Notes: generated by a model not told the origin, from the sequence alone. A stretch of 64,000 nucleotides of DNA from Escherichia coli (GCF_050920415.1 NZ_CP169309.1), one strand, 5' to 3'. Shown: positions 12,615 to 36,448, counted from the stretch's first letter. Program-made: numbers and translations.

Positions 12615-13296
12615 TTATGGATCTGTTGATTGTTTTAACTTACGTGGCGCTGGCATGGGCGGTCTTTAAAATCTTCCGTATTCCGGTGAATCAGTGGACG
12701 CTGGCGACGGCGGCGCTGGGAGGCGTTTTTCTGGTAAGCGGTTTGATTTTGTTGATGAACTACAACCACCCTTACACTTTTACCGCACAGAAAGCGGTGA
12801 TTGCTATTCCCATCACGCCACAGGTGACGGGGATCGTGACTGAAGTCACTGACAAGAATAATCAGCTTATTCAGAAGGGCGAGGTGCTTTTTAAGCTCGA
12901 CCCGGTACGTTATCAGGCGCGAGTCGACAGACTTCAGGCTGACCTGATGACGGCGACGCATAATATAAAGACGCTGCGCGCGCAGCTCACTGAAGCGCAA
13001 GCCAATACCACCCAGGTTTCAGCGGAGCGTGACCGCTTGTTTAAAAATTATCAACGTTACCTGAAAGGCAGCCAGGCGGCGGTAAATCCGTTCTCAGAAC
13101 GTGATATCGACGATGCGCGGCAGAATTTTCTCGCGCAGGATGCGCTGGTGAAAGGTTCGGTGGCGGAACAGGCGCAAATCCAGAGCCAGCTCGACTGTCA
13201 GCGCCAATGATATAAGACAGTAATTCACCATTTGGATTGTCCGCTCCACCCAACATGTTGTTTCCTTAAGGTTCCTACACCACAAAGGGAACACTC

Positions 13297-14343
13297 ATGC
13301 TGAGCAGAGAGGACTTTTACATGATAAAGCAAATGCGCCAGCAAGGTGCGTATATTGTTGATATTGCCACTCAGGTTGGTTGCTCTGAGCGGACTGTCAG
13401 ACGGTACCTGAAATACCCGGAACCTCCGGCCAGAAAAACACGCCACAAAATGGCCAAACTCAAGCCGTTCATGGACTATATCGACATGCGTCTGGCTGAG
13501 AATGTCTGGAACGGCGAGGTCATCCTGGCGGAAATCAAAGCGATGGGTTATACCGGTGGCCGTTCCATGTTGCGTTACTACATCCAGCCCAAACGTAAGA
13601 TGCGGCCATCGAAGAAAACGGTTCGCTTCGAAACTCAGCCCGGTTACCAGCTACAGCATGACTGGGGAGAAGTTGAGGCTGAGGTTGCCGGGCAACGATG
13701 CAGGGTTAACTTCGCGGTTAATACGCTGGGGTTCTCACGTCGCTTCCATGTCTTCGCGGCACCAAAGCAGGATGCTGAACATACCTATGAGTCACTGGTC
13801 CGCGCCTTTCGCTACTTCGGCGGCAGCGTGAAAACCGTGCTGGTCGATAACCAGAAAGCCGCAGTGCTGAAAAATAACAACGGGAAGGTGGTGTTCAACT
13901 CCGGGTTCCTGCTGCTGGCCGATCACTATGGCTTCCTGCCACGGGCCTGCCGTCCACGAAGGGCCAGAACCAAAGGTAAGGTGGAACGGATGGTGAAATA
14001 CCTCAAGGAAAACTTCTTCGTCCGGTACCGCCGGTTCGACAGCTTCGCCCATGTTAATCAGCTACTGGAGCAGTGGATGGCTGACGTTGCCGACAGGCGG
14101 GAACTTCGCCAGTTCAGGCAGACACCGGAACAGCGCTTCACGCAGGAACAGGTGCATCTGCAGGCGCTGCCAGGTACGGACTTCGATACCAGCTACTTCG
14201 ATATCCGTCATGTCTCCTGGGATGGCTATATCGAGGTTGGCGGGAACCGTTACAGCGTGCCGGAAAGCCTGTGTGGCCAGCCGGTATCAATACGGATCTC
14301 GCTGGATGATGAACTGCGATTTACAGTAATGAGCAACAGGTAG
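13297..14343 (+). CDS. istA: IS21-family transposase IstA, apparently frameshifted near its 3' end
   Basis: HTH N-terminus and DDE-like core. The ORF stops at 14343, but another frame continues ...[13 protein letters not shown] to a TGA at 14466-14468 that overlaps the istB ATG, the usual istA/istB junction. Confidence 0.7.
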   Translation: MLSREDFYMIKQMRQQGAYIVDIATQVGCSERTVRRYLKYPEPPARKTRHKMAKLKPFMDYIDMRLAENVWNGEVILAEIKAMGYTGGRSMLRYYIQPKRKMRPSKKTVRFETQPGYQLQHDWGEVEAEVAGQRCRVNFAVNTLGFSRRFHVFAAPKQDAEHTYESLVRAFRYFGGSVKTVLVDNQKAAVLKNNNGKVVFNSGFLLLADHYGFLPRACRPRRARTKGKVERMVKYLKENFFVRYRRFDSFAHVNQLLEQWMADVADRRELRQFRQTPEQRFTQEQVHLQALPGTDFDTSYFDIRHVSWDGYIEVGGNRYSVPESLCGQPVSIRISLDDELRFTVMSNR

Positions 14344-14455
14344 CATCGCACCGTCTCTGTTCGGCTGTATACGGCTGGCAGACCGTGCCGGAGCATCACG
14401 CCCCACTCTGGCAGCAGGTCAGTCAGGTGGAACACAGGCCGTTGAGTGCCTATGA

Positions 14456-15262
<807 letters not shown>

Positions 15263-15884
15263 TGACCAATAGCGGACATTAAAAATGGCGAAAAACGGCC
15301 AATAATCTTGGCGTTGACACGACAGTATGGTTAACGGTGAGCAGTCGCAGATTGTCAGCTTAAGGGCGCAGCTTACCGAAGCGAAATATAACCTTGAGCA
15401 GACCGTCATTCGCGCGCCGAGCAATGGCTACGTTACTCAGGTACTGATCCGCCCAGGTACATACGCAGCTGCCTTGCCGCTACGTCCGGTGATGGTTTTC
15501 ATCCCCGAGCAAAAACGGCAAATTGTCGCCCAATTTCGGCAGAACTCGCTGTTACGTCTGAAACCCGGCGATGATGCGGAAGTAGTGTTTAACGCGCTAC
15601 CTGGGCAGGTGTTCCACGGCAAACTGACTAGTATTTTACCTGTCGTGCCAGGTGGTTCGTATCAGGCGCAGGGGGTACTGCAATCATTAACCGTCGTACC
15701 CGGCACGGACGGTGTGCTGGGAACCATCGAACTGGACCCTAACGCTGATATCGATGCTTTACCCGACGGCATCTACGCCCAGGTGGCAGTTTACTCCGAC
15801 CATTTCAGCCATGTTTCGGTGATGCGGAAGGTGCTGCTAAGAATGACCAGTTGGATGCATTATCTTTATTTGGATCATTGAGGG

Positions 15885-16915: not shown

Positions 16916-17128
16916 TTATAAAAAATCCTGAATACATTGGTCCATCTGAAATGAATTGAAATTTATCCCATGCTGACTATTCATTTCATAAATCAACGTT
17001 TCACCAAAACTTGTTAATGACAAAGTTCCTTTGGATGTATTACATAAAAAATAATTATTTCCTGCGTTTAGAGTCCAGGGAATTCCAGATAAAAAAATAA
17101 AAATTAATGCTCTATCTATATTGCTCAT
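16916..17128 (-). CDS. Hypothetical small protein downstream of the orphan toxin fragment; possible immunity-gene remnant
   Basis: 70-aa ORF whose start overlaps the end of the orphan toxin ORF; AT-rich; no recognisable motif. Confidence 0.25.
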   Translation of the reverse strand: MSNIDRALIFIFLSGIPWTLNAGNNYFLCNTSKGTLSLTSFGETLIYEMNSQHGINFNSFQMDQCIQDFL

Positions 17129-18290
17129 AATTAGCCCTTATTCTGTCATCATATCCTCGCTGACTTTGCCCATTATAACATAGAGCAAAGTTAAGCCAAT
17201 CTTTATCTCTAATAGCACGCAATAATACAGGATTAGATTTTATGAAGTTAATGAATGCCGCCAGATGGTTTTTCTCTGACTCTGAAATCGATATTATAAA
17301 CTCTTCGGGCGAAGAGTACCCGGCAGCTTGGTAATTTGAAGCCAATATCTGAAATTTACCCCACGATGCCGATTTAAGCGCAGCTTGCTTATCTAAAACA
17401 TATGCACGAAGTAATTTTTGATATTGCTCCGATCGTGTTCCATAACCGCCAGAACGGCTGTTGGAAATATCAGGTTGAGAATCATACACACCATTCGTAT
17501 ATCGATGGAAATGATGTCTTTCAAAAAGAATTGAGGGGACGTAATCATCTTCTTGTTCAAATTTAAAATAGCTACCGGAACTACCAGTTTCAGTTTTTGC
17601 AACAGCTTTAATTGCAGCCACTTCGCATTGTAGTGTCCTTGCAGCATTTTCATAGTCTGCATCATCAATGGTATCTCCGTTATAAAATCGTAAAAATTCC
17701 AATGGAATAAGTTCATTATTTACAGGAGTTTTTGGGTAATTGCTATTATTAATAGCATTCAAAAACACAACCGGATGAAAATGCCACACAGCATCATCAC
17801 TATTAAACGGAGACACCCCGCTCATCCACTCCAGATCCAGCTGCCACTTTTCACAGTATGCCACTTCCTCGGGTCCAGATCTTTATAAAACCCTTCCCAG
17901 CGTCCCGTCGAGCGACCGCCGTACCACTCGCTGTGGTGTCTGACTGTCAGACGATTCACCACATTTCTCACCAGTGGTTCACGCACGGTCAGCGCCTGTC
18001 TGATCTCTTCCTCCGTCACTTTTCCATCACCGTCCTGATCCATACCCGCCATCAGCTCACGATAAAAGGGCGGTACCTGCTCATACAGCCACTCATCTCC
18101 CTGTTCTGCGGCACGGCTTATTGAGTCAAACGCTTCCGGCACCCATCCTTCGTACGGGCTGTACGTCATGTCACCGCTGCTGTTCTCCTCCAGCGGCTGA
18201 AAACCCAGCTTCAGTAAATCATACTGTCCGGCCTCTTCAACATCCTTCTGTGGCAGCCAGCCGGTTCCGGTGATATTAAGCCGCCTCTGG
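17112..18290 (-). pseudogene. Orphan 3' fragment of a VgrG-linked effector paralogue: EF-hand linker plus an alternative C-terminal muramidase-like domain, frameshifted near 17860
   Basis: ORFs 17822-18391 and 17112-17864 are collinear with residues about 383-556 of the 829-aa effector at 19290-21779 (NITGTGWLPQKDVEEAGQ...DQDGDGKVTEEE...AYCEKWQLDLEWMSGVSPFNSDDAVWHFHPVVFL), then diverge into a different C-terminal domain (...FERHHFHRYT...SWGKFQILASNY...). Confidence 0.55.
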
Positions 18291-18572
18291 TTTCCTTTTA
18301 ATAAAGCACTCGTGAAATTTTGCAGGACTGATACAGGATACAACTCTGGCAATGGTATCGTGAACAGGAATACCATTATCAAAATCACCATATTGCTTCA
18401 AAAAATCGAGATGTGTTTCCCCAAAATCCTCTATATCTTCCCAGCCTTCTGCACCCGAAATAACGGCACAAATAGTCAACAGTAGAATATCCGATAATTT
18501 ATGTTGCACTTTCCAGGCTTGTCTGTAATCGGGGATAATAGAAATATGTCCCATCAATTTTTTAAGTTCCAT
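18276..18572 (-). pseudogene. H-repeat (ISAs1-family) transposase N-terminal fragment, about 90 codons, fused to the orphan toxin fragment
   Basis: [60 protein letters not shown]... matches the N-terminus of H-rpt transposases; a second copy with its upstream sequence is repeated at about 16150-16600. Confidence 0.6.
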
Positions 18573-18873
18573 TTTGTTCTCCTTAATTATGTAAGGAGTA
18601 TTTGATCATGTATAAGCAATAAAAAACAGCTTTAGGTAATGAGGAATATCTCAATTTTCAAACATAAAATGCGAATTGTCTAGTACAAAAAAGCAGCGTT
18701 ACGTGATCTTTCCCTGCCTGCCTGTACGATATCCCTCAAAAATAATTTTCCAGTCAGTTATTCATGTCTAACTTAAAATCATAAAACATTTAAATTAATA
18801 ATAAACAAATTCAACCTAGTCGCATTATTATTTTAATAACACAGCATCGATTTCATAAAAAACTGCACAATGG

Positions 18874-19284
18874 TCATCCAGTCCATTTGCAATCAGTACC
18901 ATCATCATTATATGCCTCAATATTTTCTTCAAACTCAGTTGTTTTCCCACTTATTGATTTATAATGAAACAAATTAAATCTTGCACCTTGTGTGGAAACA
19001 ACATACAACCCATTAATTTTTCCATTTACAACCTCGCTCCATGCATAAGAAAATTCAGAAGGCCTGTCATCGAAAGTCACTTCTAATTTATTTATAAACG
19101 CAAGAGGTATAAATTTTGAGGATTTCTCATAAATCACATAACCTAAAAAAATATCGCCAGACGATATTTCAACAAACTTTAAATTTGTTTTCCCAGCGCT
19201 AAAACAGCCTACCGTTGTTTGTTGTTTAGCCAATAAACAACAAGGCACCAAACAAAACAGTAAAACCAATAAGTTAACTTTCAT
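18874..19284 (-). CDS. Small secreted protein, putative immunity protein for the effector at 19290-21779
   Basis: N-terminal Sec-type signal peptide MKVNLLVLLFCLVPCCLLA; GGAG ribosome-binding site; starts 5 bp after the effector stop; AT-rich. Confidence 0.5.
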   Translation of the reverse strand: MKVNLLVLLFCLVPCCLLAKQQTTVGCFSAGKTNLKFVEISSGDIFLGYVIYEKSSKFIPLAFINKLEVTFDDRPSEFSYAWSEVVNGKINGLYVVSTQGARFNLFHYKSISGKTTEFEENIEAYNDDGTDCKWTG

Positions 19285-19289
19285 ATCAA

Positions 19290-21779
19290 TTACTCCAGTT
19301 CAGTTATTCGTCTCTCTACAAATGTGGATATATTCCTTTTTTCTATTCCATATACTTTTCTATCACCCTCACGCCCTTCCTGAGGAAACGGATGCAGGTC
19401 AATTAATTCTTTCGCCCTTCTATAACCTTTTAATGCTTCTTCGTTACTCTTGATCGTCCCTCTTCGGGAGCTATCAGGATCATGCCATATCCCCCATCCC
19501 AAAGCATATACTTTATTATCATATACGTCACTATCATCAAACAAGAAATCGTCGTTCATTGCTTTCTGATTTAAATGCTCGGCAGCAAGTGAGGTAACCA
19601 ATTTATTAAATATCGACAACCGTTCATCATAATGATTATACCCTCCATTAATCACTGCTGTAATTTTATTAAAATCATCATTTTTAGCATCTTCATTTAT
19701 TCTTTTGAATATATTGAAATACCAAAACGCAGATAATACGCAATGTGGGGAGGATATAAGTTTATCTCTTGCGGAATCTGAAGATGTTACGTCCTCATTG
19801 ATATATTCCCCATAGGCGGTGTAATTACTTTCCCCTGTAACTTGTATTAAGCCTCGGCCATACCACGGACTATATGAAGCTGATTCACCATTAATTTCTT
19901 TGGTATATCTAAAATAACCGCTCTCGTGAATAATTTGAGCAAGAAAATGGGCTTTTTCTCTACAAGTGGTCATACCAAACCGAATAAACCCTGCATTTAT
20001 ATCGTAGAGGTACCTTTTGAGAAGACCTTCACTTACTGCAGGAGCAACTTTTTTTAATTCATCTAATGTTATATCTCTGTTGCAAGCACACACAGATTTG
20101 GAATTAATAGCGTCCAAAAACACAACCGGATGAAAATGCCACACAGCATCATCACTATTAAACGGAGATACCCCGCTCATCCACTCCAGATCCAGCTGCC
20201 ACTTCTCACAGTATGCCACTTCCTCTGTGTCCAGATCTTTATAAAATCCTTCCCACCGCCCTGTCGAGCGCCCTCCGTACCATTCGCTGTGGTGTTTAAC
20301 TATCAGATGATTCACCACATTTCTCACCAGTGGTTCACGCACGGTCAGCGCCTGTCTGATCTCTTCCTCCGTCACTTTTCCATCACCGTCCTGATCCATA
20401 CCCGCCATCAGCTCACGATAAAAGGGCGGTACCTGCTCATACAGCCACTCATCTCCCTGTTCTGCGGCACGGCTTATTGAGTCAAACGCTTCCGGCACCC
20501 ATCCTTCGTACGGGCTGTACGTCATGTCACCGCTGCTGTTCTCCTCCAGCGGTTGAAAACCCAGCTTCAGTAAATCATACTGTCCGGCCTCTTCAACATC
20601 CTTTTGTGGCAGCCAGCCGGTTCCGGTGATATTAAACCACCACTGCTGCGATTCATCCGTGATCGGTGTCGTGGCTTCCCGCGGAAGAACGCGCTGAGCA
20701 CCCAGTGTGGCTGCGGTTGCGGTAAATACCTCCTGTCCCGGAACGGCCTGCCGGGTGTATAAAATTATCCCTTTTGGTGCCAGAACAGTCCGTTTTTCTC
20801 CCTTAACGCCTGCCGGGTTGGATAAGAACTTTGGCATATTCGGGTCTGTACTCAGAACCTCCAGATGGACGAACCACTCGCGCTCAATCTCACCGCTTCC
20901 CTCGCCAGGATAATCCTCGCATCCCATAAATCCGACCGGTGTTCCGGCACTGACTTTCCACTCTTCCGTTTCGTCGACCGTCTGTACCGAGTCAAAAATG
21001 CCTTTTGCCTTCGCCTTCTGCATCCACTCAGGCATCAGCATCTGTATTTCGCCATCTGACTCCATCAGATCCGGATCCAGGGTCACCCAGTACTGCTCAT
21101 TCCCCGGTTTATTGCCTTCCAGCAGGCGAACCAGTCCGAATGTCGTCAGGACCGGCTGGCCGTTATTGGTCACGTAAAAACGTCCGGTCCGGGATGACAC
21201 AAACCGATCTCCCGCATTAAGTGTCCTGTTTCCGCTGATTTTCGGGGGTATCCAGTACGTGGCATGATCTCCGCTTTCCTGCCCCTCGGGAAGGCCGTTC
21301 TTTCCCGGGATGTATCGGTGCAGCAATATGCCACCATGCCCGGTTTTAACTTTATAGCAGGGGGAGCCGGGATAATCGTTCACCGGGGCCAGATGCATAT
21401 AGAGACAGTAAAATTCCAGCCAGCTTTCTTTTTTTTGCGGGTCTGGCTGGCACTGCGATTTCACCAGAACAAATGTGCTGCTGTAACGGAGTTGCTGCCC
21501 TTTGTAGGTGCCTTTCAGGTAATCATTATTTATCCGGTACGCCGCAATGGTGCCATCGGCCATAAACTGAAGAGGAACCGGTTCTCCGGTAGCGGCGGTA
21601 TCCGGTTTCAGGGCTGATAACGGATTAGACACGTCACTGATATGTATCCCGCCGTGCCACAGCCCGTTTCCACCCAGCAGCCAGGTTCCGTGCGCTTCTT
21701 TGTCAATAAGCCGCATTATCTCATCCAGCGAGCGAAACTCTTTGCCTTCTTTATCCCTGATGGGATGGCTGATTTTCAT
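19290..21779 (-). CDS. VgrG-linked multidomain putative T6SS effector (829 aa): N-terminal M23-like region, EF-hand loop, C-terminal GH19-like glycoside hydrolase
   Basis: Starts 9 bp after the vgrG stop. WHGGIHI, LYMHL and GTPVGFMG...FVHLEV resemble M23 (lysostaphin/LytM) motifs; DQDGDGKVTEEE is a canonical 12-residue EF-hand loop; AHFLAQIIHESG...YGRGLIQVTGESNY resembles GH19 signatures. No signal peptide. Confidence 0.6.
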   Translation of the reverse strand: MKISHPIRDKEGKEFRSLDEIMRLIDKEAHGTWLLGGNGLWHGGIHISDVSNPLSALKPDTAATGEPVPLQFMADGTIAAYRINNDYLKGTYKGQQLRYSSTFVLVKSQCQPDPQKKESWLEFYCLYMHLAPVNDYPGSPCYKVKTGHGGILLHRYIPGKNGLPEGQESGDHATYWIPPKISGNRTLNAGDRFVSSRTGRFYVTNNGQPVLTTFGLVRLLEGNKPGNEQYWVTLDPDLMESDGEIQMLMPEWMQKAKAKGIFDSVQTVDETEEWKVSAGTPVGFMGCEDYPGEGSGEIEREWFVHLEVLSTDPNMPKFLSNPAGVKGEKRTVLAPKGIILYTRQAVPGQEVFTATAATLGAQRVLPREATTPITDESQQWWFNITGTGWLPQKDVEEAGQYDLLKLGFQPLEENSSGDMTYSPYEGWVPEAFDSISRAAEQGDEWLYEQVPPFYRELMAGMDQDGDGKVTEEEIRQALTVREPLVRNVVNHLIVKHHSEWYGGRSTGRWEGFYKDLDTEEVAYCEKWQLDLEWMSGVSPFNSDDAVWHFHPVVFLDAINSKSVCACNRDITLDELKKVAPAVSEGLLKRYLYDINAGFIRFGMTTCREKAHFLAQIIHESGYFRYTKEINGESASYSPWYGRGLIQVTGESNYTAYGEYINEDVTSSDSARDKLISSPHCVLSAFWYFNIFKRINEDAKNDDFNKITAVINGGYNHYDERLSIFNKLVTSLAAEHLNQKAMNDDFLFDDSDVYDNKVYALGWGIWHDPDSSRRGTIKSNEEALKGYRRAKELIDLHPFPQEGREGDRKVYGIEKRNISTFVERRITELE

Positions 21780-21788
21780 GTTCAGTCC

Positions 21789-23990
21789 TTATCGTGAGAA
21801 TCTTCCCGGCCGTTGTGGCGGTACCTTATCCTGCTGGGGAGGATCAAAGGCTTCCTGTACATTTTTCCGTGGTGGCTCCGCCCCTTCAGTTCCAGGTCCG
21901 CCATTGTCATAATCTGCCAGCGCTTTCAAAACCGCCGGTCGTAGTGTCGGCACCGGCGTTCCCGGACTACCGCCGCTATTGAGATTGATTTTCGGCCCGA
22001 CGATGTCCACGCCCCCTGAATGGATGACCACAAACGAACCACCCACCTTCAGGGTGATTTTACCGCCACTCTCCAGTACGATTTCATCCCGGACCTTCAT
22101 TCCCAGCGCACCGGTAATCTTCCTCGCCAGGTCGCCCTTCACCTCCAGACTGTGCGTTCCCTCCACCAGACTGATATGGTTCCCCGTCGTCTTATGCTCC
22201 TGCTTCCCTTCCACCGTCACTTTACGGTCGTTTCTGACATACAGGCCGTCATCGTGACTCACGCTCACCGTCCGGTCATTCGTCACCTTCAGCGTCTGGT
22301 CATTACGTACCGTTATGCGCCGGTCGTTCGCCACCGTGATACTCTGGTCGTGGCCCCCTTCTTTTCTGGTGCCGACCTCAACCGTCTGCCCCTTCACCAC
22401 CCTTATCTTCTGGTCGTTACCGATGGTCTCCGTATGGTCATGCTTCACGTCCGTCGTCCGGTCGTTAAGCACCTCCGTGTCCATGTTCTTCTGCGCGTGG
22501 ATATACACCTGCTCACTGTCCGTCGCATCCTCGAAACGCAGTTCATTAAAGCCGCTTCCTTTATAGGTCTTCGAGCGGATGGTCATCTGCGTCCGCGTGC
22601 CCGGTAAATCCCCCGGTGAACGGTTATCTTCATGGTAGGTCCGCCCCGTCACAATGGGCTGGTCCGGGTCGCCGTTCAGAAAGTCCACTATCACTTCCTG
22701 ACCCACACGCGGTATCGCCAGATTGCCGAACCCCGGTCCCGCCCATGCCTGCGACACCCGTATCCAGCATGAACTCTCCTCCGTCATCCCGTGATAACGG
22801 TCCCAGTGAAACTTCACCCGTACCCGGCCATGCTCGTCGCAGAATATCTCCTCGCCCTTCGGCCCGGTCACGATGGCACTCTGCGGGCCGTCCACCTTCG
22901 GCTTCGGCAGGGGCTGTGAGCGCCAGGTCCGGTCTGCCGGGATGACCGTGATATGGTTACTCAGTGTCGTTCCCCTCCCCTGGCTCCCGTGCAGCGCCTG
23001 CGGCTGGCTCCCCGTCAGCGTGCTGCTCACCACCTGCCACTCACGGTTCGGGTTCGCTCCCTGTACCGGATGCCCCGTCAGGGTGAACCGCCGTCCCGGC
23101 CACAGCGCCGGGGAGTTACTGATACCTGTGGCGGTTTCAGCACTGTTACGCAGCCCTTCCAGCCGGTAGCGGGTAAAGTCCTGACCATGCTGCTCGTCCT
23201 TGTAGCGCCCCGGCCAGTCCAGGATTTTGTACTGCTTCAGTTGCTCGTTGAGGTTTTCAGCATCCTCAATGTAAATACCCGGCCAGTCCGGCACCTTAAA
23301 CGTGTGGTCTTTTGAACGCACCTGCGAGGGCCGCACCTGCGCCTGGTAGCGGAACAGGCTGATGCACGCCGTCGTCACCTCACGGGTGTTCGGGTTAAAC
23401 GGTATCTCCCCGTACACCGGCAGGCCCGCCACATCATCGCACAGCGTGAGCGTCTGCTCCGGGCTGTCGTCAGCGTATCTGTCATAAAAGAAGATGCCTT
23501 CCTCCGCCCACAGCCGGGTCAGAAACGCCAGGTCGCTTTCACCGTACTGGACGCAGAACTCCCGTGCCGGGTGGCTCTCATAAAAGCGCGGCGTCCACTG
23601 CGTCACTCCGTCCTCGTTTAACAGCGTGGCGGAGATGGCCTGAATGTCCTGCTGCTGGAAGATTCGGTAGTTCTGCCGCAGCCCGCTGCGCCACAGGGGC
23701 GGGCGTATCTGAAGGTGGTACTGCATCTGCCAGCCGTTGTGCTCCTTCATGCCTAACCCCGACACCACACCGCTCACATAACGCAGCGCCGTGCCACCCT
23801 GCCAGATGGTCAGCACGGCCCCCTTCTCCAGCAGCTTCTCCGCCGTCTGGCGGAACGAGTCGCTGGCAACGTCCACATCCAGGACGAACGGCGATGAGTA
23901 TGCCTGCGTGAGGCGGAAATCCACCACCGCGAACGTCTCCGGCACCAGTCCGTCCACCGTCAGCGTAAAACGCAGCCCTTTTAATGACAT
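21789..23990 (-). CDS. vgrG: Type VI secretion spike protein VgrG (733 aa)
   Basis: MSLKGLRFTLTVDGL... N-terminus, gp27/gp5-like core with beta-helix repeats (VRNDQTLKVTNDRTVSVSHDD...), GGAGG-type RBS. Confidence 0.9.
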   Translation of the reverse strand: MSLKGLRFTLTVDGLVPETFAVVDFRLTQAYSSPFVLDVDVASDSFRQTAEKLLEKGAVLTIWQGGTALRYVSGVVSGLGMKEHNGWQMQYHLQIRPPLWRSGLRQNYRIFQQQDIQAISATLLNEDGVTQWTPRFYESHPAREFCVQYGESDLAFLTRLWAEEGIFFYDRYADDSPEQTLTLCDDVAGLPVYGEIPFNPNTREVTTACISLFRYQAQVRPSQVRSKDHTFKVPDWPGIYIEDAENLNEQLKQYKILDWPGRYKDEQHGQDFTRYRLEGLRNSAETATGISNSPALWPGRRFTLTGHPVQGANPNREWQVVSSTLTGSQPQALHGSQGRGTTLSNHITVIPADRTWRSQPLPKPKVDGPQSAIVTGPKGEEIFCDEHGRVRVKFHWDRYHGMTEESSCWIRVSQAWAGPGFGNLAIPRVGQEVIVDFLNGDPDQPIVTGRTYHEDNRSPGDLPGTRTQMTIRSKTYKGSGFNELRFEDATDSEQVYIHAQKNMDTEVLNDRTTDVKHDHTETIGNDQKIRVVKGQTVEVGTRKEGGHDQSITVANDRRITVRNDQTLKVTNDRTVSVSHDDGLYVRNDRKVTVEGKQEHKTTGNHISLVEGTHSLEVKGDLARKITGALGMKVRDEIVLESGGKITLKVGGSFVVIHSGGVDIVGPKINLNSGGSPGTPVPTLRPAVLKALADYDNGGPGTEGAEPPRKNVQEAFDPPQQDKVPPQRPGRFSR

Positions 23991-24145
23991 GATGACCTCC
24001 CTGGTATTGCTACAGGAAAAAGTAATTAACCGATATTGACCGTACCTTCTGATATTCTCTCACTGATTCATTATCTGTATTTCCCATGAACATTCTCATT
24101 TCAACAGGAAAACCAACGAATTGTAGCCATGACAATAAGTTAACA

Positions 24146-25060
24146 TTAATAATTCCTCAACGAATAAGGAGGAGATGCCCTGTCCCCATCAATAGTAACC
24201 ACGACCTGATTTGATCTTATTTTGAATATATTATCATTACCGCCATGATAGCCAAATCGTGCTAAAAAATCCTGAAATAGACCAGGTCCTCTATAAGGTC
24301 CACAGATTCTCCAAACCCGCCACTCCTCTATGCCATACGTTATTTTATCTATAGGATTAGTACACTCTCTTTCTGCCCGCCAGTTCATAATAGAAAGAAA
24401 ATACTCATATATATATTGTTCTGCAAACCACTCTTGATTAACTATTGTAAATTCTACCGTCCCTATATTATAACGATGAATGCCCGGTAAAAAGGCATAA
24501 TAATCGTTCAATGTGACATCAAAGGATAGCTCTTTCCCTGGTAATATCTCGCGCCAAACAGATTTACTTTTCCATTCACCAAAGCTACATTTTGTTTTTT
24601 TTAAAAAATCCAACTGAATGTTATCCATTATCGGTATAAACACACCACTACACAAGGAAGAGTAAGGCCCGCCGTTAACGTCAAGAGGAAGAGTTAGTCG
24701 ATGAACAAAATAAGATCCCTGGCTTTTATTCGATAAAACCACTGCAGCTGCTACAATATTTTCTTTCTGATGCACGGAAAGATGAAGATATATTTTATTT
24801 TTATCCTGATTATACTGACTCTCATTTTTACTGATAGTATAATATTGAAAAACAGCATAGGCTGAAAGATCATCATAATAATCATAATAATTAAGCCTTG
24901 TCGGTTCTACACGAGGATAGACACCAAGTTTTTCCATTACTCCATTCCAATGTAACTTCCCATATCTGTAATGAACCGCATAATCGCCAGAGATATCATA
25001 AGCAAATATTGGATGCACCCAAGAAAAAAAAGCAATAAAAACAATCCATCTAGCAAGCAT
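24146..25060 (-). CDS. Secreted protein with Sec signal peptide, putative immunity protein for the HExxH effector
   Basis: Start placed at the ATG at 25058-25060 (strong GGGGGAG RBS), giving MLARWIVFIAFFSWVHPIFA as signal peptide; 25 bp after the effector stop. Confidence 0.5.
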   Translation of the reverse strand: MLARWIVFIAFFSWVHPIFAYDISGDYAVHYRYGKLHWNGVMEKLGVYPRVEPTRLNYYDYYDDLSAYAVFQYYTISKNESQYNQDKNKIYLHLSVHQKENIVAAAVVLSNKSQGSYFVHRLTLPLDVNGGPYSSLCSGVFIPIMDNIQLDFLKKTKCSFGEWKSKSVWREILPGKELSFDVTLNDYYAFLPGIHRYNIGTVEFTIVNQEWFAEQYIYEYFLSIMNWRAERECTNPIDKITYGIEEWRVWRICGPYRGPGLFQDFLARFGYHGGNDNIFKIRSNQVVVTIDGDRASPPYSLRNY

Positions 25061-25084
25061 ATACTCCCCCGTCAAATAAAAGCA

Positions 25085-25930
25085 TCAATATGGTACAGGA
25101 ATCTCGAAATAACGTTCGATATTATATGCATTCTGAAACAGTTCTGATTTTTTATCATTTTTTAATTTAGTGGCATGAGCAATATATTCGTCACCTGTAC
25201 TATACTCTATATCTACCGGCATATCTTCCGTCCACATGCCTCCAAACTTAAGTGAATCCCCGTACCTTATAAAGTGAGATAGTTCATGGCAGAGTGTCGA
25301 TGCCTTAGAGTTTTCCCCAGTGAATGGCCTATCTATAAATCTTTGTCCTATAGTTATACTTACCAAACTTTTAAAGCTTCCAGATTTTACACCCAAAATC
25401 TGATCGTAAGTTACATTGGCAGCATAAGCGTCATTATCTGTACAATTCACAAAGTTACCAATTTTGGGCCTGATTACGTCTTTGTCAACATATTCATTAC
25501 CCCCTTTGTCATTAAGAACAAGATTACAATTGGCATCACGTTTGAGGAAATGGTCATGAACGGTAACGTCTACACAATCACCTTCCACAGATAATTCCCC
25601 ACATATCTCATACAGGCGAGTAACGCCATTTCTCATATAATCCCTTGCCTTTATATTCTCTGTAAACAGAGTATTACGCCCCCCGAAAGGGAACTTTAAT
25701 TTAATATAAGTATTTCCATCAATGCCAAATATATTTATAAATTCCTGATTTTGTTCCGCCCCCCATTTATCACCAAGATCTTCTACTCTTTTTTTCAATA
25801 CAGCCATCTGCGCCTTCAGAGCCTCTCTCATCATTATTTTAAAATCATTAGTAATTTTCCCCTCCTTTAAAACTACACACTGTTCACCACTCTGGCTTTT
25901 TCCGCTCGTACTACCCTTTTCATCTCCCAT
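25085..25930 (-). CDS. VgrG-linked putative zinc-metallopeptidase-like effector (281 aa, HExxH)
   Basis: CHELSHF (HExxH) at residues 215-219, with a possible downstream Asp ligand in STGDEY; hydrophilic N-terminus with no signal peptide; AAGGAGGA RBS; 81 bp after the vgrG stop. Confidence 0.5.
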   Translation of the reverse strand: MGDEKGSTSGKSQSGEQCVVLKEGKITNDFKIMMREALKAQMAVLKKRVEDLGDKWGAEQNQEFINIFGIDGNTYIKLKFPFGGRNTLFTENIKARDYMRNGVTRLYEICGELSVEGDCVDVTVHDHFLKRDANCNLVLNDKGGNEYVDKDVIRPKIGNFVNCTDNDAYAANVTYDQILGVKSGSFKSLVSITIGQRFIDRPFTGENSKASTLCHELSHFIRYGDSLKFGGMWTEDMPVDIEYSTGDEYIAHATKLKNDKKSELFQNAYNIERYFEIPVPY

Positions 25931-26011
25931 ATAAATCCTCCTTGGTATATATTTTCACTACAAACCCTGTTCCATTTATGCAAAAACACGCCAATTACAG
26001 GCGGTCACTCT

Positions 26012-28324
26012 CTATTCATTAATCCCTCCCCATATCATATCGATATTCAAATGCAACAATCTGACGTCTATTGTCTGCTCGCTGTCAGTGGTGAATATTT
26101 CCGTATACCCATCCTTATCCGTTTCTCCGCGGGTCTGCGTGCCGTCCTCAAAGAAGGCAATGTAGCGTGTCTCTGAATACGGTATCCCGTCATCGTCTGT
26201 AAAATGGAACTGGAGAGTATATTTTTCAGGGTTCTCATCATCATTCTCATCCTCCAGCGCCTCCAGTACAACCGGTTGCAGCGTCGATACTGGCGTCCCC
26301 GGACCTCCCCCACCATTCAGGTTTATCTTCGGCCCCACTATATCCACGCCGCCAGAGTGTATCACCACGAACGAACCGCCCGCTTTCAGGCTTATCTGGC
26401 TGCTGCTCTCCAGCACGATATCCCCGTCCACCTTTATCCCCAGCGCGCCACTCACCTTCTCCGCCAGGTCACCCTTCACCTCCAGGCTGTGTTTCCCCTC
26501 CACCAGGCTGATATGGTTTCCCGTCGTCTTATGCTCCTGCTTCCCTTCCACCGTCACTTTACGGTCGTTTCTGACATACAGGCCGTCATCGTGACTCACG
26601 CTCACCGTCCGGTCATTCGTCACCTTCAGCGTCTGGTCATTACGTACCGTTATGCGCCGGTCGTTCGCCACCGTGATACTCTGGTCGTGACCCCCTTCTT
26701 TTCTGGTGCCGACCTCAACCGTCTGCCCCTTCACCACCCTTATCTTCTGGTCGTTACCGATGGTCTCCGTATGGTCATGCTTCACGTCCGTCGTCCGGTC
26801 GTTAAGCACCTCCGTGTCCATGTTCTTCTGCGCGTGGATATACACCTGCTCACTGTCCGTCGCATCCTCGAAACGCAGTTCATTAAAGCCGCTTCCTTTA
26901 TAGGTCTTCGAGCGGATGGTCATCTGCGTCCGCGTGCCCGGTAAATCCCCCGGTGAACGGTTATCTTCATGGTAGGTCCGCCCCGTCACAATGGGCTGGT
27001 CCGGGTCGCCGTTCAGAAAGTCCACTATCACTTCCTGACCCACACGCGGTATCGCCAGATTGCCGAACCCCGGTCCCGCCCATGCCTGCGACACCCGTAT
27101 CCAGCATGAACTCTCCTCCGTCATCCCGTGATAACGGTCCCAGTGAAACTTCACCCGTACCCGGCCATGCTCGTCGCAGAATATCTCCTCACCCTTCGGC
27201 CCGGTCACGATGGCACTCTGCGGGCCGTCCACCTTCGGCTTCGGCAGCGGCGCGTGACGCCACGTCCTGTCTGCCGGTATCACCTCAAACTGATTGCTCA
27301 GTGTCGTCCCTTCACCGTGACTCCCGTGCAGCGCCTGCGGCTGTTCTCCCCGCAGTGTGCTTCCCACAACCTGCCATTCCCGGTTCAGCGTCGCTGACGG
27401 ATGGCCCGTCAGCCGGAACCGCGTTCCCGGCCACAGCCGCGCCGTGTTACACACCCCGCTCGCCGTCTCCGCCCCGTTCCGCCACCCTTCCGTCTGGTAA
27501 CGCGCAAAATCCTGGCCATGCTGCTCATCCTTGAAACGCCCCGGATAATCAAATATCTCGTACTGCGTTCCCTGTCCGTTCAGGCTCTCCCCGTCATGGC
27601 TGTAGTACCCCGGCCACCCCGGCGTTTTGAACGTATAATCCTGCGTCTCCACCGACGCCACGCTTATCTGCGCACGGTAACGGAAGTCGCGGATGTACTC
27701 TGTCGTGCCTCCGGTCGTGGTATTCGGGTTAAACGCCAGCGCCCCCATTCCCGTCAGCCCCGCCACGTCATCACACACCGCCAGCTTCTGTTCCGGCCCG
27801 TCCTGACTGCAGCGTTCATAAAAGAAGATACCTTCCTCCGCCCACAGCCGGGTCAGGAATGTCAGGTCGCTCTCCCCGTACTGCACGCAGAACTCCCGCG
27901 CCGGGTGCGCCTCATAGAACAGCGGCATCCACGCCGTCACCCCGTTCTCTTCAAGAAGCTGCGCTGATATCGTCTGAATGTCCTGCTGCTGGAAGATACG
28001 GAAGTTCTGCCGTAACCCTGCCCGCCACAGCGGCGGGCTGATGCTCAGGGAATAACGCATCTGCCAGTCGTTGTTCTCACCGAGCTGCACCTCTGTCACG
28101 ATACCGCTGACGTAACGCTGTGCAGTGTCGCCCTGCCAGACCGTCAGCACCGCGCTTTTCTCCAGAAAATCTTCTGCCGTCAGGTCAGACAGTCCGCTGG
28201 CGATATCCACATCCAGGATGAACGGTGTGCAGTGGTGCTGGTACAGACGGAAGCTCACCACCGCCGTCGCCATCTCCACAATACCGTCCACCGACAGCGT
28301 GAAACGTAATCCTTCTGCTGCCAT
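26012..28324 (-). CDS. vgrG: Type VI secretion spike protein VgrG with a divergent acidic C-terminal extension (about 770 aa)
   Basis: Start set at MAAEGLRFTLSVDG (ATG at 28322-28324); core nearly identical to the vgrG at 21789-23990; C-terminal 100 aa (...EDENDDENPEKYTLQFHFTDDDGIPYSE...) is unique. Confidence 0.9.
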   Translation of the reverse strand: MAAEGLRFTLSVDGIVEMATAVVSFRLYQHHCTPFILDVDIASGLSDLTAEDFLEKSAVLTVWQGDTAQRYVSGIVTEVQLGENNDWQMRYSLSISPPLWRAGLRQNFRIFQQQDIQTISAQLLEENGVTAWMPLFYEAHPAREFCVQYGESDLTFLTRLWAEEGIFFYERCSQDGPEQKLAVCDDVAGLTGMGALAFNPNTTTGGTTEYIRDFRYRAQISVASVETQDYTFKTPGWPGYYSHDGESLNGQGTQYEIFDYPGRFKDEQHGQDFARYQTEGWRNGAETASGVCNTARLWPGTRFRLTGHPSATLNREWQVVGSTLRGEQPQALHGSHGEGTTLSNQFEVIPADRTWRHAPLPKPKVDGPQSAIVTGPKGEEIFCDEHGRVRVKFHWDRYHGMTEESSCWIRVSQAWAGPGFGNLAIPRVGQEVIVDFLNGDPDQPIVTGRTYHEDNRSPGDLPGTRTQMTIRSKTYKGSGFNELRFEDATDSEQVYIHAQKNMDTEVLNDRTTDVKHDHTETIGNDQKIRVVKGQTVEVGTRKEGGHDQSITVANDRRITVRNDQTLKVTNDRTVSVSHDDGLYVRNDRKVTVEGKQEHKTTGNHISLVEGKHSLEVKGDLAEKVSGALGIKVDGDIVLESSSQISLKAGGSFVVIHSGGVDIVGPKINLNGGGGPGTPVSTLQPVVLEALEDENDDENPEKYTLQFHFTDDDGIPYSETRYIAFFEDGTQTRGETDKDGYTEIFTTDSEQTIDVRLLHLNIDMIWGGINE

Positions 28325-28539
28325 ATAAACCCCATAGCTACCGCACTCATAGTGCAAACCATACGGGCTTATAAGAAAGGCTTAAGTGAGATATCTGCCA
28401 GATAGCAACTATTAGGAAAATATTTATATCACCATGATAAATATGTGATTTATTGGGAGATAACAAACCATCAACATTTTCTGCCCTTTTTCCCATCACC
28501 AGGCCATACTGATATTTTTCCTCGCACAAAGGACTCGGC

Positions 28540-29148
28540 ATGAAACTCGTCGGTAGCTACACCAGCCCGTTTGTACGCAAACTTTCTATTCTGTTGTTAG
28601 AAAAGGGCATAACTTTCGAATTTATTAATGAACTGCCCTATAACGCGGACAACGGCGTGGCGCAATTTAACCCGTTAGGGAAAGTGCCGGTGCTGGTGAC
28701 CGAAGAGGGCGAATGTTGGTTTGATTCGCCGATCATCGCTGAATATATTGAATTAATGAATGTCGCTCCGGCGATGTTGCCGCGCGATCCGCTGGAGTCG
28801 TTGCGAGTGCGCAAAATTGAGGCGCTGGCGGATGGCATTATGGATGCCGGGCTGGTATCGGTGCGTGAACAGGCGCGTCCGGCGGCGCAGCAGTCTGAAG
28901 ATGAATTGTTACGCCAGCGGGAGAAAATCAACCGCAGTCTGGATGTGCTGGAAGGATATCTGGTCGATGGCACGCTCAAAACCGATACGGTCAATCTGGC
29001 GACTATCGCCATTGCCTGTGCCGTCGGATATCTCAATTTCCGCCGCGTTGCGCCAGGCTGGTGTGTCGACCGCCCACACTTAGTCAAACTGGTCGAAAAC
29101 CTGTTTAGCCGCGAAAGTTTTGCCCGCACCGAACCGCCAAAGGCTTGA
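28540..29148 (+). CDS. yibF: Glutathione S-transferase-like protein YibF (202 aa)
   Basis: [28 protein letters not shown]... thioredoxin-like GST N-terminal domain; upstream of selA as in K-12. Confidence 0.85.
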
Positions 29149-35835: not shown

Positions 35836-36021
35836 GTGAAAAGTGCAGACGTGATCGCCATCCTGAAGCAGCATGGCTGGGAACATATTCGAACCCGTGG
35901 TAGTCATCATCAGTTCCGCCACCCTGTCCATCCGGGTCTGGTGACGGTTCCGCACCCTAAAAAAGATATTAAGCCCGGTACGCTGGCGCAAATTGGGCGT
36001 CAGGCTGGTTTAACATTTTAA
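35836..36021 (+). CDS. hicA: HicA-family toxin (YcfA-like mRNA interferase), 61 aa, GTG start
   Basis: MKSADVIAILKQHGWEHIRTRGSHHQFRHPVHPGLVTVPHPKKDIKPGTLAQIGRQAGL matches the HicA pattern (GSHhqf...vtvPhH.kdlk.gtl..I..qaGl). Confidence 0.7.
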   Translation: MKSADVIAILKQHGWEHIRTRGSHHQFRHPVHPGLVTVPHPKKDIKPGTLAQIGRQAGLTF

Positions 36022-36037
36022 AATTTCAGGAGGCAAT

Positions 36038-36448
36038 ATGTTTTATCCCGCCTATATCCACAGTGATCCTGACGGCAGCGCCAGCGGTTTTTTCCCTGAT
36101 GTTCCAGGCTGTTATTTTGCTGGTGATACGCTGGACAACGCTTTCCAGGATGCGCGAAGTGCACTGGTCGCGCACTTCGAAACCTTATGCGAGATGAATG
36201 AAGAGTTGCCGCTTCCAGGCTCTGTGGAAACACATCTGGTCCAGCGTGCGCAGGACTTTATTGGCGGGCAATGGTTGCTGGTGGATATCAATATGAATCA
36301 GTTCGAAGGTCGGGCTGAACGTATCAATATTACGATGCCGAAAAGATTACTGAACAAGATTGATACCTACGTGCGCAATAACCCAGACTACGCCAACAGA
36401 AGTGCGTTTCTGGCGGAAGCTGCCCGGCGTGTATTGCCGGGCGTTTAA
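36038..36448 (+). CDS. hicB: HicB-family antitoxin with C-terminal ribbon-helix-helix domain (136 aa)
   Basis: Starts 17 bp after hicA; N-terminal HicB fold; C-terminal INITMPKRLLNKIDTYVRNNPDYANRSAFLAEAARRVL has RHH character. Confidence 0.65.
   Translation: MFYPAYIHSDPDGSASGFFPDVPGCYFAGDTLDNAFQDARSALVAHFETLCEMNEELPLPGSVETHLVQRAQDFIGGQWLLVDINMNQFEGRAERINITMPKRLLNKIDTYVRNNPDYANRSAFLAEAARRVLPGV

Follow-up and report, generated by a model that had tools for sequence, protein, structure and literature searches.

The 64,000-nucleotide stretch of Escherichia coli DNA analysed here (the window; GCF_050920415.1, NZ_CP169309.1) contains a vgrG island inserted beside yibF-selA-selB. Four genes of this island follow one another on the minus strand: vgrG1 (26012-28324), a 281-amino-acid (aa) open reading frame (ORF; 25085-25930), a 304-aa ORF (24146-25060) and vgrG2 (21789-23990). 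The features located below within or just upstream of the first three genes are on the same strand. The island holds a probable effector/immunity pair. The 281-aa product (WP_000502104.1) was assigned to the aspzincin (M35-type) zinc endopeptidases and is referred to as the effector; the 304-aa product (WP_000881111.1), a periplasmic protein co-conserved 3' of every effector homologue, is the candidate immunity protein. The vgrG1 product (770 aa), identified by its Pfam domains and annotated as tssI by the Prokaryotic Genome Annotation Pipeline (PGAP), is a type VI secretion system (T6SS) spike protein and the probable carrier of the effector.

The effector gene lies 81 nt downstream of vgrG1. 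It begins with an ATG placed 6 nt after the Shine-Dalgarno sequence AAGGAGG (25937-25943), and the N-terminus of its product (MGDEKGSTSGKSQSGEQ), read directly from the sequence, is hydrophilic and devoid of a signal peptide. A first-pass annotation made on this DNA had reported the position directly behind vgrG, the strong ribosome-binding site and the absence of a leader; these three observations were confirmed. It had also pointed out a zincin-like motif, CHELSHF, which was recovered exactly at residues 214-220, with HELSH at residues 215-219 (25274-25288). Taken alone, HExxH is weak evidence, because a lone copy is expected by chance in about 0.6% of proteins of such composition, the effector having 5 His and 20 Glu among its 281 residues. 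H215, E216 and H219 were unchanged in 13/13 aligned family members and, with D236, Y269 and E272, constitute the invariant set of the family alignment (n = 13). The structure model of the effector displayed with confidence the fold of an aspzincin catalytic domain. The motif falls inside it, so that its presence in a zincin-like fold was upheld by both the profile and the structure-model checks. An invariant HExxH within a confidently modelled aspzincin fold is far beyond chance.

The assignment to aspzincins was obtained by several searches. With phmmer against the PDB sequences, aspzincins were the only matches, around the pattern ...TG.DS.A.TL.HE.SHF. A profile built from 13 homologues also retrieved aspzincins only from the PDB (1g12, E 1e-4; 2x3a, which is AsaP1, E 4.6e-4). 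An exhaustive profile search of 1.84 billion representatives yielded a small core family, whose representatives number 22 at E<1e-30, together with some 100 weaker matches, of which 27 were sampled; Pfam Aspzincin_M35 was borne by all of them (27/27). The core family was compared with these 27 Aspzincin_M35 proteins using hhalign, and they aligned over the whole domain with a probability of 99.7% (E 3.7e-27). Orthologues in two other strains carry the PGAP label 'M35 family metalloendopeptidase'. Among the more remote Aspzincin_M35 proteins, fusions to PAAR, VgrG, Hcp or Rhs/YD carriers are frequent, which makes aspzincin a polymorphic toxin domain of wide occurrence. The reference group for the effector consists of the peptidyl-Lys metalloendopeptidase GfMEP (1G12), AsaP1 (2X3A) and deuterolysin (1EB6), classified as MEROPS M35 and Pfam PF14521/PF02102. 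These enzymes are made as secreted pre-pro-enzymes with an inhibitory propeptide, whereas the effector has neither signal peptide nor prodomain in cis (the catalytic domain begins at about residue 26), and T6SS delivery is proposed for it instead of zymogen secretion.

HELSH aligned with HESSH of GfMEP and with HQLSH/HALSH of the AsaP1 E294 mutant structures, and would provide two zinc ligands (H215 and H219) and the catalytic Glu (E216). The third zinc ligand is probably D236 (25223-25225), an invariant residue of the segment GGMWTED (family consensus GGMGTDD), which aligned with the Asp in the GTxD motif of aspzincins, the one that Aspzincin_M35 proteins have in GGT.D. The first-pass annotation had looked for this ligand in STGDEY, about 27 residues beyond HELSH. 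The hexapeptide is indeed present (residues 244-249, 25184-25201), but it starts 25 residues after H219, its D247 is variable, and the ligand is more credibly the invariant D236. Only Y249 matches the motif: kept in 11/13 members, it aligned with the Tyr of GTxDxxYG, from which it is displaced by a family-specific insertion. The family signature NAYNIERYFE (residues 267-276, 25103-25132) is the counterpart of the NADN(H/F)EYF helix lining the S1' pocket of AsaP1 and GfMEP. In the effector, the Asp of this helix has become Tyr (the invariant Y269), and the Glu persists as E272. The latter is the equivalent of GfMEP E157, which controls the specificity for Lys in P1' (PMC11985622). With a Tyr in place of the neighbouring S1' Asp and the Glu kept, the sequence suggests that the specificity of the effector is probably related to, but not the same as, that of Lys-N.

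Two further segments of the effector were distinguished. The N-terminal tail (residues 1-25, 25856-25930) is rich in Ser, Gly and Lys and is predicted to be disordered, with a predicted local distance difference test score (pLDDT) of about 30. Its pattern MSxxxxSTxG...CV.E recurs across the family as a consensus, and the tail may contact VgrG. An insertion of about 45 residues (113-160, 25451-25594) is lineage-specific: it is gapped in most homologues, and confidence in its model was low (pLDDT 43-55).

Homologues of the pair were collected at 11 places, which correspond to 10 loci in five genera (Escherichia, Buttiauxella, Phytobacter, Citrobacter and Rahnella); E. coli contributes four of the 11 places, in three loci. 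The gene order vgrG, effector, immunity was found in 11/11 places, with the effector directly after vgrG. The vicinity to vgrG noted in the window is shared by homologues in other genomes, and an aspzincin-like T6SS effector had been correctly sensed at first pass. Homologues are few and restricted to Enterobacterales (12 clusters in a word-indexed protein search, six loci among 100,044 species genomes). The effector allele of the window was present in 3/5426 complete E. coli genomes, and paralogues annotated 'peptidase M35' in about 280/5426. The exact 281-aa and 304-aa sequences were found on 67 and 64 contigs, respectively, and both ORFs were still intact in a copy with 4% DNA divergence. 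A second matching place was detected in the host genome by a distant DNA search; another M35-family effector paralogue is probably present elsewhere in this genome.

Two homologues have been studied experimentally, and the published proteins were tied to the family loci by matching their cloning primers. The forward primer of M35-PAR (PMC10673891) matched exactly at L005:12357, and the junction and immunity primers matched with few substitutions, by which AKO63_2955/AKO63_2956 of E. coli PAR were matched to L005:12357-14156. The effector is 46.8% identical over its full length (E 6e-80) to the product of L005:12357-13145, itself near-identical to M35-PAR, and the 304-aa ORF is 43% identical to the M35-PAR partner. 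Produced in E. coli from the pelB vector pET22b, M35-PAR is toxic and its toxicity is relieved by the downstream gene; it binds VgrG via a DUF2345 protein, its adaptor (PMC10673891). Both 'M35-like' primers of PMC7904677 matched L014:5935-6726 exactly. The BCE049 M35-like protein is 35% identical to the effector (E 1.6e-38), its downstream protein is homologous to the 304-aa ORF, and it was toxic only when provided with a PelB leader, i.e. in the periplasm (PMC7904677). Since two homologues have published toxicity, the family of the effector is not uncharacterised, as the PGAP M35 label also indicates; at first pass the effector had not been recognised as a member of a characterised T6SS effector family.

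The two tested homologues differ from the effector in several respects. M35-PAR/AKO63_2956 belongs to the same family and shows the same vgrG-effector-immunity order as the window pair, but its VgrG is of the DUF2345 type and only about 26% identical to VgrG1, which has a different C-terminal module. In PMC10673891, M35-PAR was equated with the VgrG2b domain; its aspzincin fold and the nature of its immunity protein were not recognized there. BCE049 M35-like and the 'Peptidase M35' proteins of the WP_000342577.1 type (located at the yncG locus or in the T6SS cluster) share NAYNIERYFE and STLCHE(M/L)SH with the effector. The VgrG that precedes the WP_000342577.1-type effectors shares its C-terminal module with VgrG1, to which it is 74-75% identical. 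They are, however, far commoner than the effector, lack the 113-160 insertion, have a C-terminal coiled extension and are accompanied by immunity proteins of 249-261 aa.

The family is borne by two unrelated VgrG classes, one with DUF2345 and one, that of VgrG1, without significant DUF2345. Phage_GPD, Phage_base_V and Gp5_trimer_C were detected in VgrG1 with Pfam, and DUF2345 just at E=0.34. Behind an acidic linker, VgrG1 ends with a module of about 65-70 aa (...EKYTLQFHFTDDDGIPYSETRYIAFFEDGTQTRGETDKDGYTE..., 26015-26227), which is shared with VgrGs preceding M35 effectors; the identity was 62-85% with the M35-preceding VgrGs of L003, L009, L014 and L015. The vgrG2 product is identical to VgrG1 over aa 351-600 but lacks this module and is followed by a different cargo. 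The two proteins diverge completely over their last ~80 residues, and each C-terminus is paired with its own cargo. The vgrG pair looks like the outcome of recombination swapping cargo-specific tails onto a common spike core. Since the module tracks with the M35 cargo and is absent from VgrG2, we propose that it may be a cargo-docking domain, i.e. the docking site of the effector.

The 304-aa ORF starts with a typical signal peptide (MLARWIVFIAFFSWVHPIFA, followed by YD) comprising residues 1-20 (25001-25060), read from the sequence, with cleavage predicted after IFA. The neighbour described as periplasmic at first pass (24146-25060) is present. Downstream proteins homologous to this ORF were found in all loci (28-45% identity), and a hydrophobic N-terminal leader was seen in 9/10 of the downstream ORFs examined. 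No match was obtained for the immunity protein or its family in Pfam, BsuPI included, or in NCBIfam, and the family profile gave only noise against the PDB sequences. The AlphaFold2 model of the protein (pLDDT 72, above 90 in the core) is all-beta and did not match the mature-only aspzincins 1G12 and 1EB6; the part of AsaP1 that it matched must therefore be the propeptide. The core of the model (about residues 87-210, 24431-24802) is a beta-sandwich with the fold of the AsaP1 prodomain, and it resembles both the aspzincin propeptide and BsuPI. When the model was searched with Foldseek against AFDB50, its own family came first, followed by BsuPI-domain proteins and by 353-380-aa 'lysine-specific metallo-endopeptidase' precursors (E about 1e-7).

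Intermediate sequences were found by inspecting the genes that lie around fused aspzincin toxins. At L017, the gene following a VgrG-aspzincin fusion encodes a 173-aa protein with a signal peptide whose top PDB match is the AsaP1 propeptide (residues 36-134, E 1.8e-4); in BLASTP it was 31% identical to this propeptide (E 4e-10), and it was linked to the 304-aa ORF family with hhalign (86%, E 4.9e-6). For the genes following PAAR-aspzincin fusions at L020 and L021, the E values were 3e-10 to 3e-16 against propeptides and, in a small database, 2e-6 to 3e-9 against the hidden Markov model (HMM) of the 304-aa ORF family. Over the three loci, the products matched the AsaP1 and P0125 propeptides (BLASTP E 4e-10 to 3e-16) and this HMM (E 3e-9 to 4e-5, also in a small database). 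The homologues of the AsaP1 propeptide retrieved by the word-indexed protein search were only short, frameshifted fragments. We conclude that propeptide-like domains probably confer immunity to T6SS aspzincins, and that the 304-aa ORF would be a longer periplasmic elaboration of such a domain. In contrast to the AsaP1 propeptide and to Bacillus subtilis BsuPI (3ISY), it is a separate Sec-exported product encoded 3' of the protease rather than an N-terminal domain in cis, and it has roughly double the length, additional elements being present at both termini along with helical ones.

At L020:3388-3798 and L021:3615-4022, the propeptide-like products that accompany PAAR-fused toxins lack a signal peptide. 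A signal peptide is present in that of L017, which accompanies a VgrG-fused toxin, and in the partners of the enterobacterial stand-alone toxins. The site of action or of neutralization may differ between aspzincin sub-families.

By analogy with the propeptides, the immunity protein would naturally inhibit the effector by covering its active-site cleft. T6SS aspzincin effector-immunity pairs may be regarded as 'split zymogens': a secreted pro-aspzincin would have supplied its mature domain as the toxin, and its own inhibitory propeptide would survive as a free-standing immunity protein that plugs the cleft in trans. We lean slightly towards this proposal, which would apply to stand-alone, VgrG-fused, PAAR-fused and probably Hcp-fused aspzincin toxins.

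One reading frame is shared by the effector and immunity ORFs, with only the effector TGA stop codon (25085-25087) and three codons between them. In strain N96 (L002:12147-13931), TTA replaces TGA and a 594-aa effector-immunity fusion (WP_000502244.1) is encoded; 3 contigs carry it, and 2 carry a second fusion variant. The split form occurs on 67 contigs and the fused form on about 5. Incorporation of selenocysteine or read-through at this TGA, beside selA/selB, was considered and discarded. The 66-nt stretch across the stop codon (25030-25095) folded no better than shuffled sequences (z +1.3), and no structure resembling a selenocysteine insertion sequence was present downstream. Moreover, the immunity ORF has its own ribosome-binding site, ATG and signal peptide, and the split form outnumbers the fused one.

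From these data, the effector is quite probably a mature aspzincin domain and little more, carried as T6SS cargo, acting in the periplasm and countered by the product of the next gene. It would be made in the cytoplasm without signal peptide or prodomain, loaded onto VgrG1, probably through the conserved C-terminal module, and fired by the T6SS into neighbouring Gram-negative cells, where it would act as a zinc-dependent endopeptidase in the prey periplasm. Zinc would be bound by H215, H219 and D236, with E216 as general base and Y249 as catalytic tyrosine, and proteolysis would be the toxic activity of the effector itself. The producer and its kin would be protected by the Sec-exported product of 24146-25060, which most likely serves as a prodomain in trans, lying across the active-site cleft.

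Several results weigh against this interpretation. No match was obtained when the effector was scanned directly with Pfam and NCBIfam, the Pfam HMM being silent even at E<=10, and among the family members Aspzincin_M35 was reached at E<=0.1 in 4/13 and at E<=0.001 in 0/13. Compared with the reference aspzincins, the effector is thus below the Pfam thresholds; its S1' Asp is changed to Tyr and its GTxDxxYG motif is degenerate, with WTED, a 12-residue gap and Y, the final G being lost. The assignment of D236 as a ligand was made by alignment. For the immunity family, the similarity to the AsaP1 and P0125 propeptides was modest (hhalign 70%, E 4e-5, residues 94-198), and the link with propeptides leans partly on structure models and on the intermediate sequences. 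The published experiments on the two tested homologues show neither T6SS-dependent delivery, nor peptidase activity, nor a substrate, and no published secretion assay was found for the effector family. Finally, insertion sequence (IS) fragments and gene remnants occur in the island: its annotation lists pieces of ISAs1 and IS21, a truncated piece of a duplicated effector and pseudogenes. This last point, the low frequency of the allele and the existence of fusion variants could be explained if the pair had lost its function and were decaying within a vgrG island that is itself degenerating. Such a state is quite improbable: both ORFs are intact and have good ribosome-binding sites, all the catalytic residues are conserved, and the sequences recur on the many contigs cited above and remain intact in the 4%-diverged DNA copy.

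The nature of the target was also considered. A protein substrate is favoured, and a peptidase directed against peptidoglycan, cutting stem peptides next to meso-diaminopimelic acid (meso-DAP) or the Lpp-Lys-DAP link, is retained as a rather unlikely, minority alternative. Homologues are toxic in the periplasm, and cell-wall damage was predicted by the authors of PMC7904677. The retained E272 might also suit such a target, since GfMEP E157 sets the preference for basic/amino side chains and meso-DAP carries an amine, but an invariant Tyr, Y269, occupies the position of the second acidic residue of S1'. The characterized aspzincins are all endopeptidases of proteins or peptides, and none is known to act on peptidoglycan. 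The known peptidoglycan metallopeptidases have other folds (M23, M15 and M14). A toxin delivered by the T6SS mainly against a eukaryotic host, comparable to the fish-lethal secreted AsaP1 and with a downstream gene unrelated to immunity, was judged improbable. AsaP1 is annotated 'toxic extracellular endopeptidase' and M35 proteases are fungal virulence factors; however, the partner of the effector is tightly co-conserved, bears a signal peptide and looks like a protease inhibitor, and homologues kill E. coli from the periplasm, one of them being rescued by its partner. The effector might nevertheless have a dual, trans-kingdom role. Membership of the VgrG2b C-terminal metallopeptidase family (DUF4157, HExxH+Glu) would follow from the statement in PMC10673891 that M35-PAR corresponds to the PA0262 toxin domain. 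VgrG2b/PA0261 of Pseudomonas aeruginosa (6H56) is a zinc HExxH T6SS toxin which is toxic only in the periplasm and is neutralized by the product of an adjacent small gene (PMC6899460). Its way of working is similar, and both it and M35-PAR are periplasm-acting HExxH toxins of the T6SS with an immunity gene downstream, but it uses a Glu as additional ligand, has thermolysin-like neighbours and is linked covalently to VgrG. The effector matched 6H56 neither in sequence nor in structure, and this membership, extremely improbable, was rejected. The 'M35' label, given to both toxins in PMC10673891, appears to be a misnomer for VgrG2b, and the M35-PAR family is placed among the aspzincins, with their Asp ligand.

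The effector interpreted here as a periplasm-acting aspzincin belongs to a known kind of T6SS effector with toxic members; what is new is a rare, divergent allele and a propeptide-like immunity protein. An aspzincin rather than the VgrG2b-like gluzincin implied by the literature leads to a testable catalytic model (H215, E216, H219, D236 and Y249), and Y269 with E272 offer a hypothesis for the specificity pocket. The VgrG C-terminal module that tracks with the cargo predicts a loading interface. Owing to its Lys-N-like scaffold, whose substrate-binding geometry is known, the effector is a good entry to the targets of periplasmic T6SS metallopeptidases, VgrG2b included. The propeptide-like immunity protein is the part most worth pursuing: its likeness to a prodomain predicts a mechanism of inhibition and suggests the evolutionary origin of the pair. 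If the split zymogen proposal is true, it would document a route from a single protease precursor to a toxin-antidote pair.

Other features were noted around the pair. Within 17000-29000, the G+C content is mosaic, at 34-38% in the effector/immunity cargo genes and 57-64% in the bodies of the vgrG genes, which is consistent with foreign cargo cassettes having been put in behind conserved spike genes. In a scan of 23900-28600 with promoter and terminator consensus sequences, the number of sites was not above that of shuffled controls, and the scan was uninformative on operon structure. No T6SS core gene was present within the annotated 50 kb of the window. Beyond vgrG2, the minus strand carries the genes of an 829-aa GH19/EF-hand protein (19290-21779) and of a 136-aa ORF (18874-19284), then IS remnants and gene fragments. 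These two genes form a second cargo module (18874-21779), in which the 829-aa protein has an EF-hand loop and a GH19/chitinase-like C-terminus and the 136-aa ORF has a signal peptide. The module recalls the architecture of the Salmonella arizonae effector SARI_02625, which has M23 peptidase, EF-hand and endolysin-like domains (PMC12992299). After it, at 17112-18391, come a truncated duplicate, in which part of an EF-hand is fused to part of an N-acetylmuramidase, and ISAs1 remnants. Two ordinary features unrelated to the effector were also recorded: the IS21-family element ISEc62 breaks a yibH-like gene of the HlyD family (region 12617-15881), and a hicA/hicB toxin-antitoxin pair is located downstream of aldB (35836-36448).

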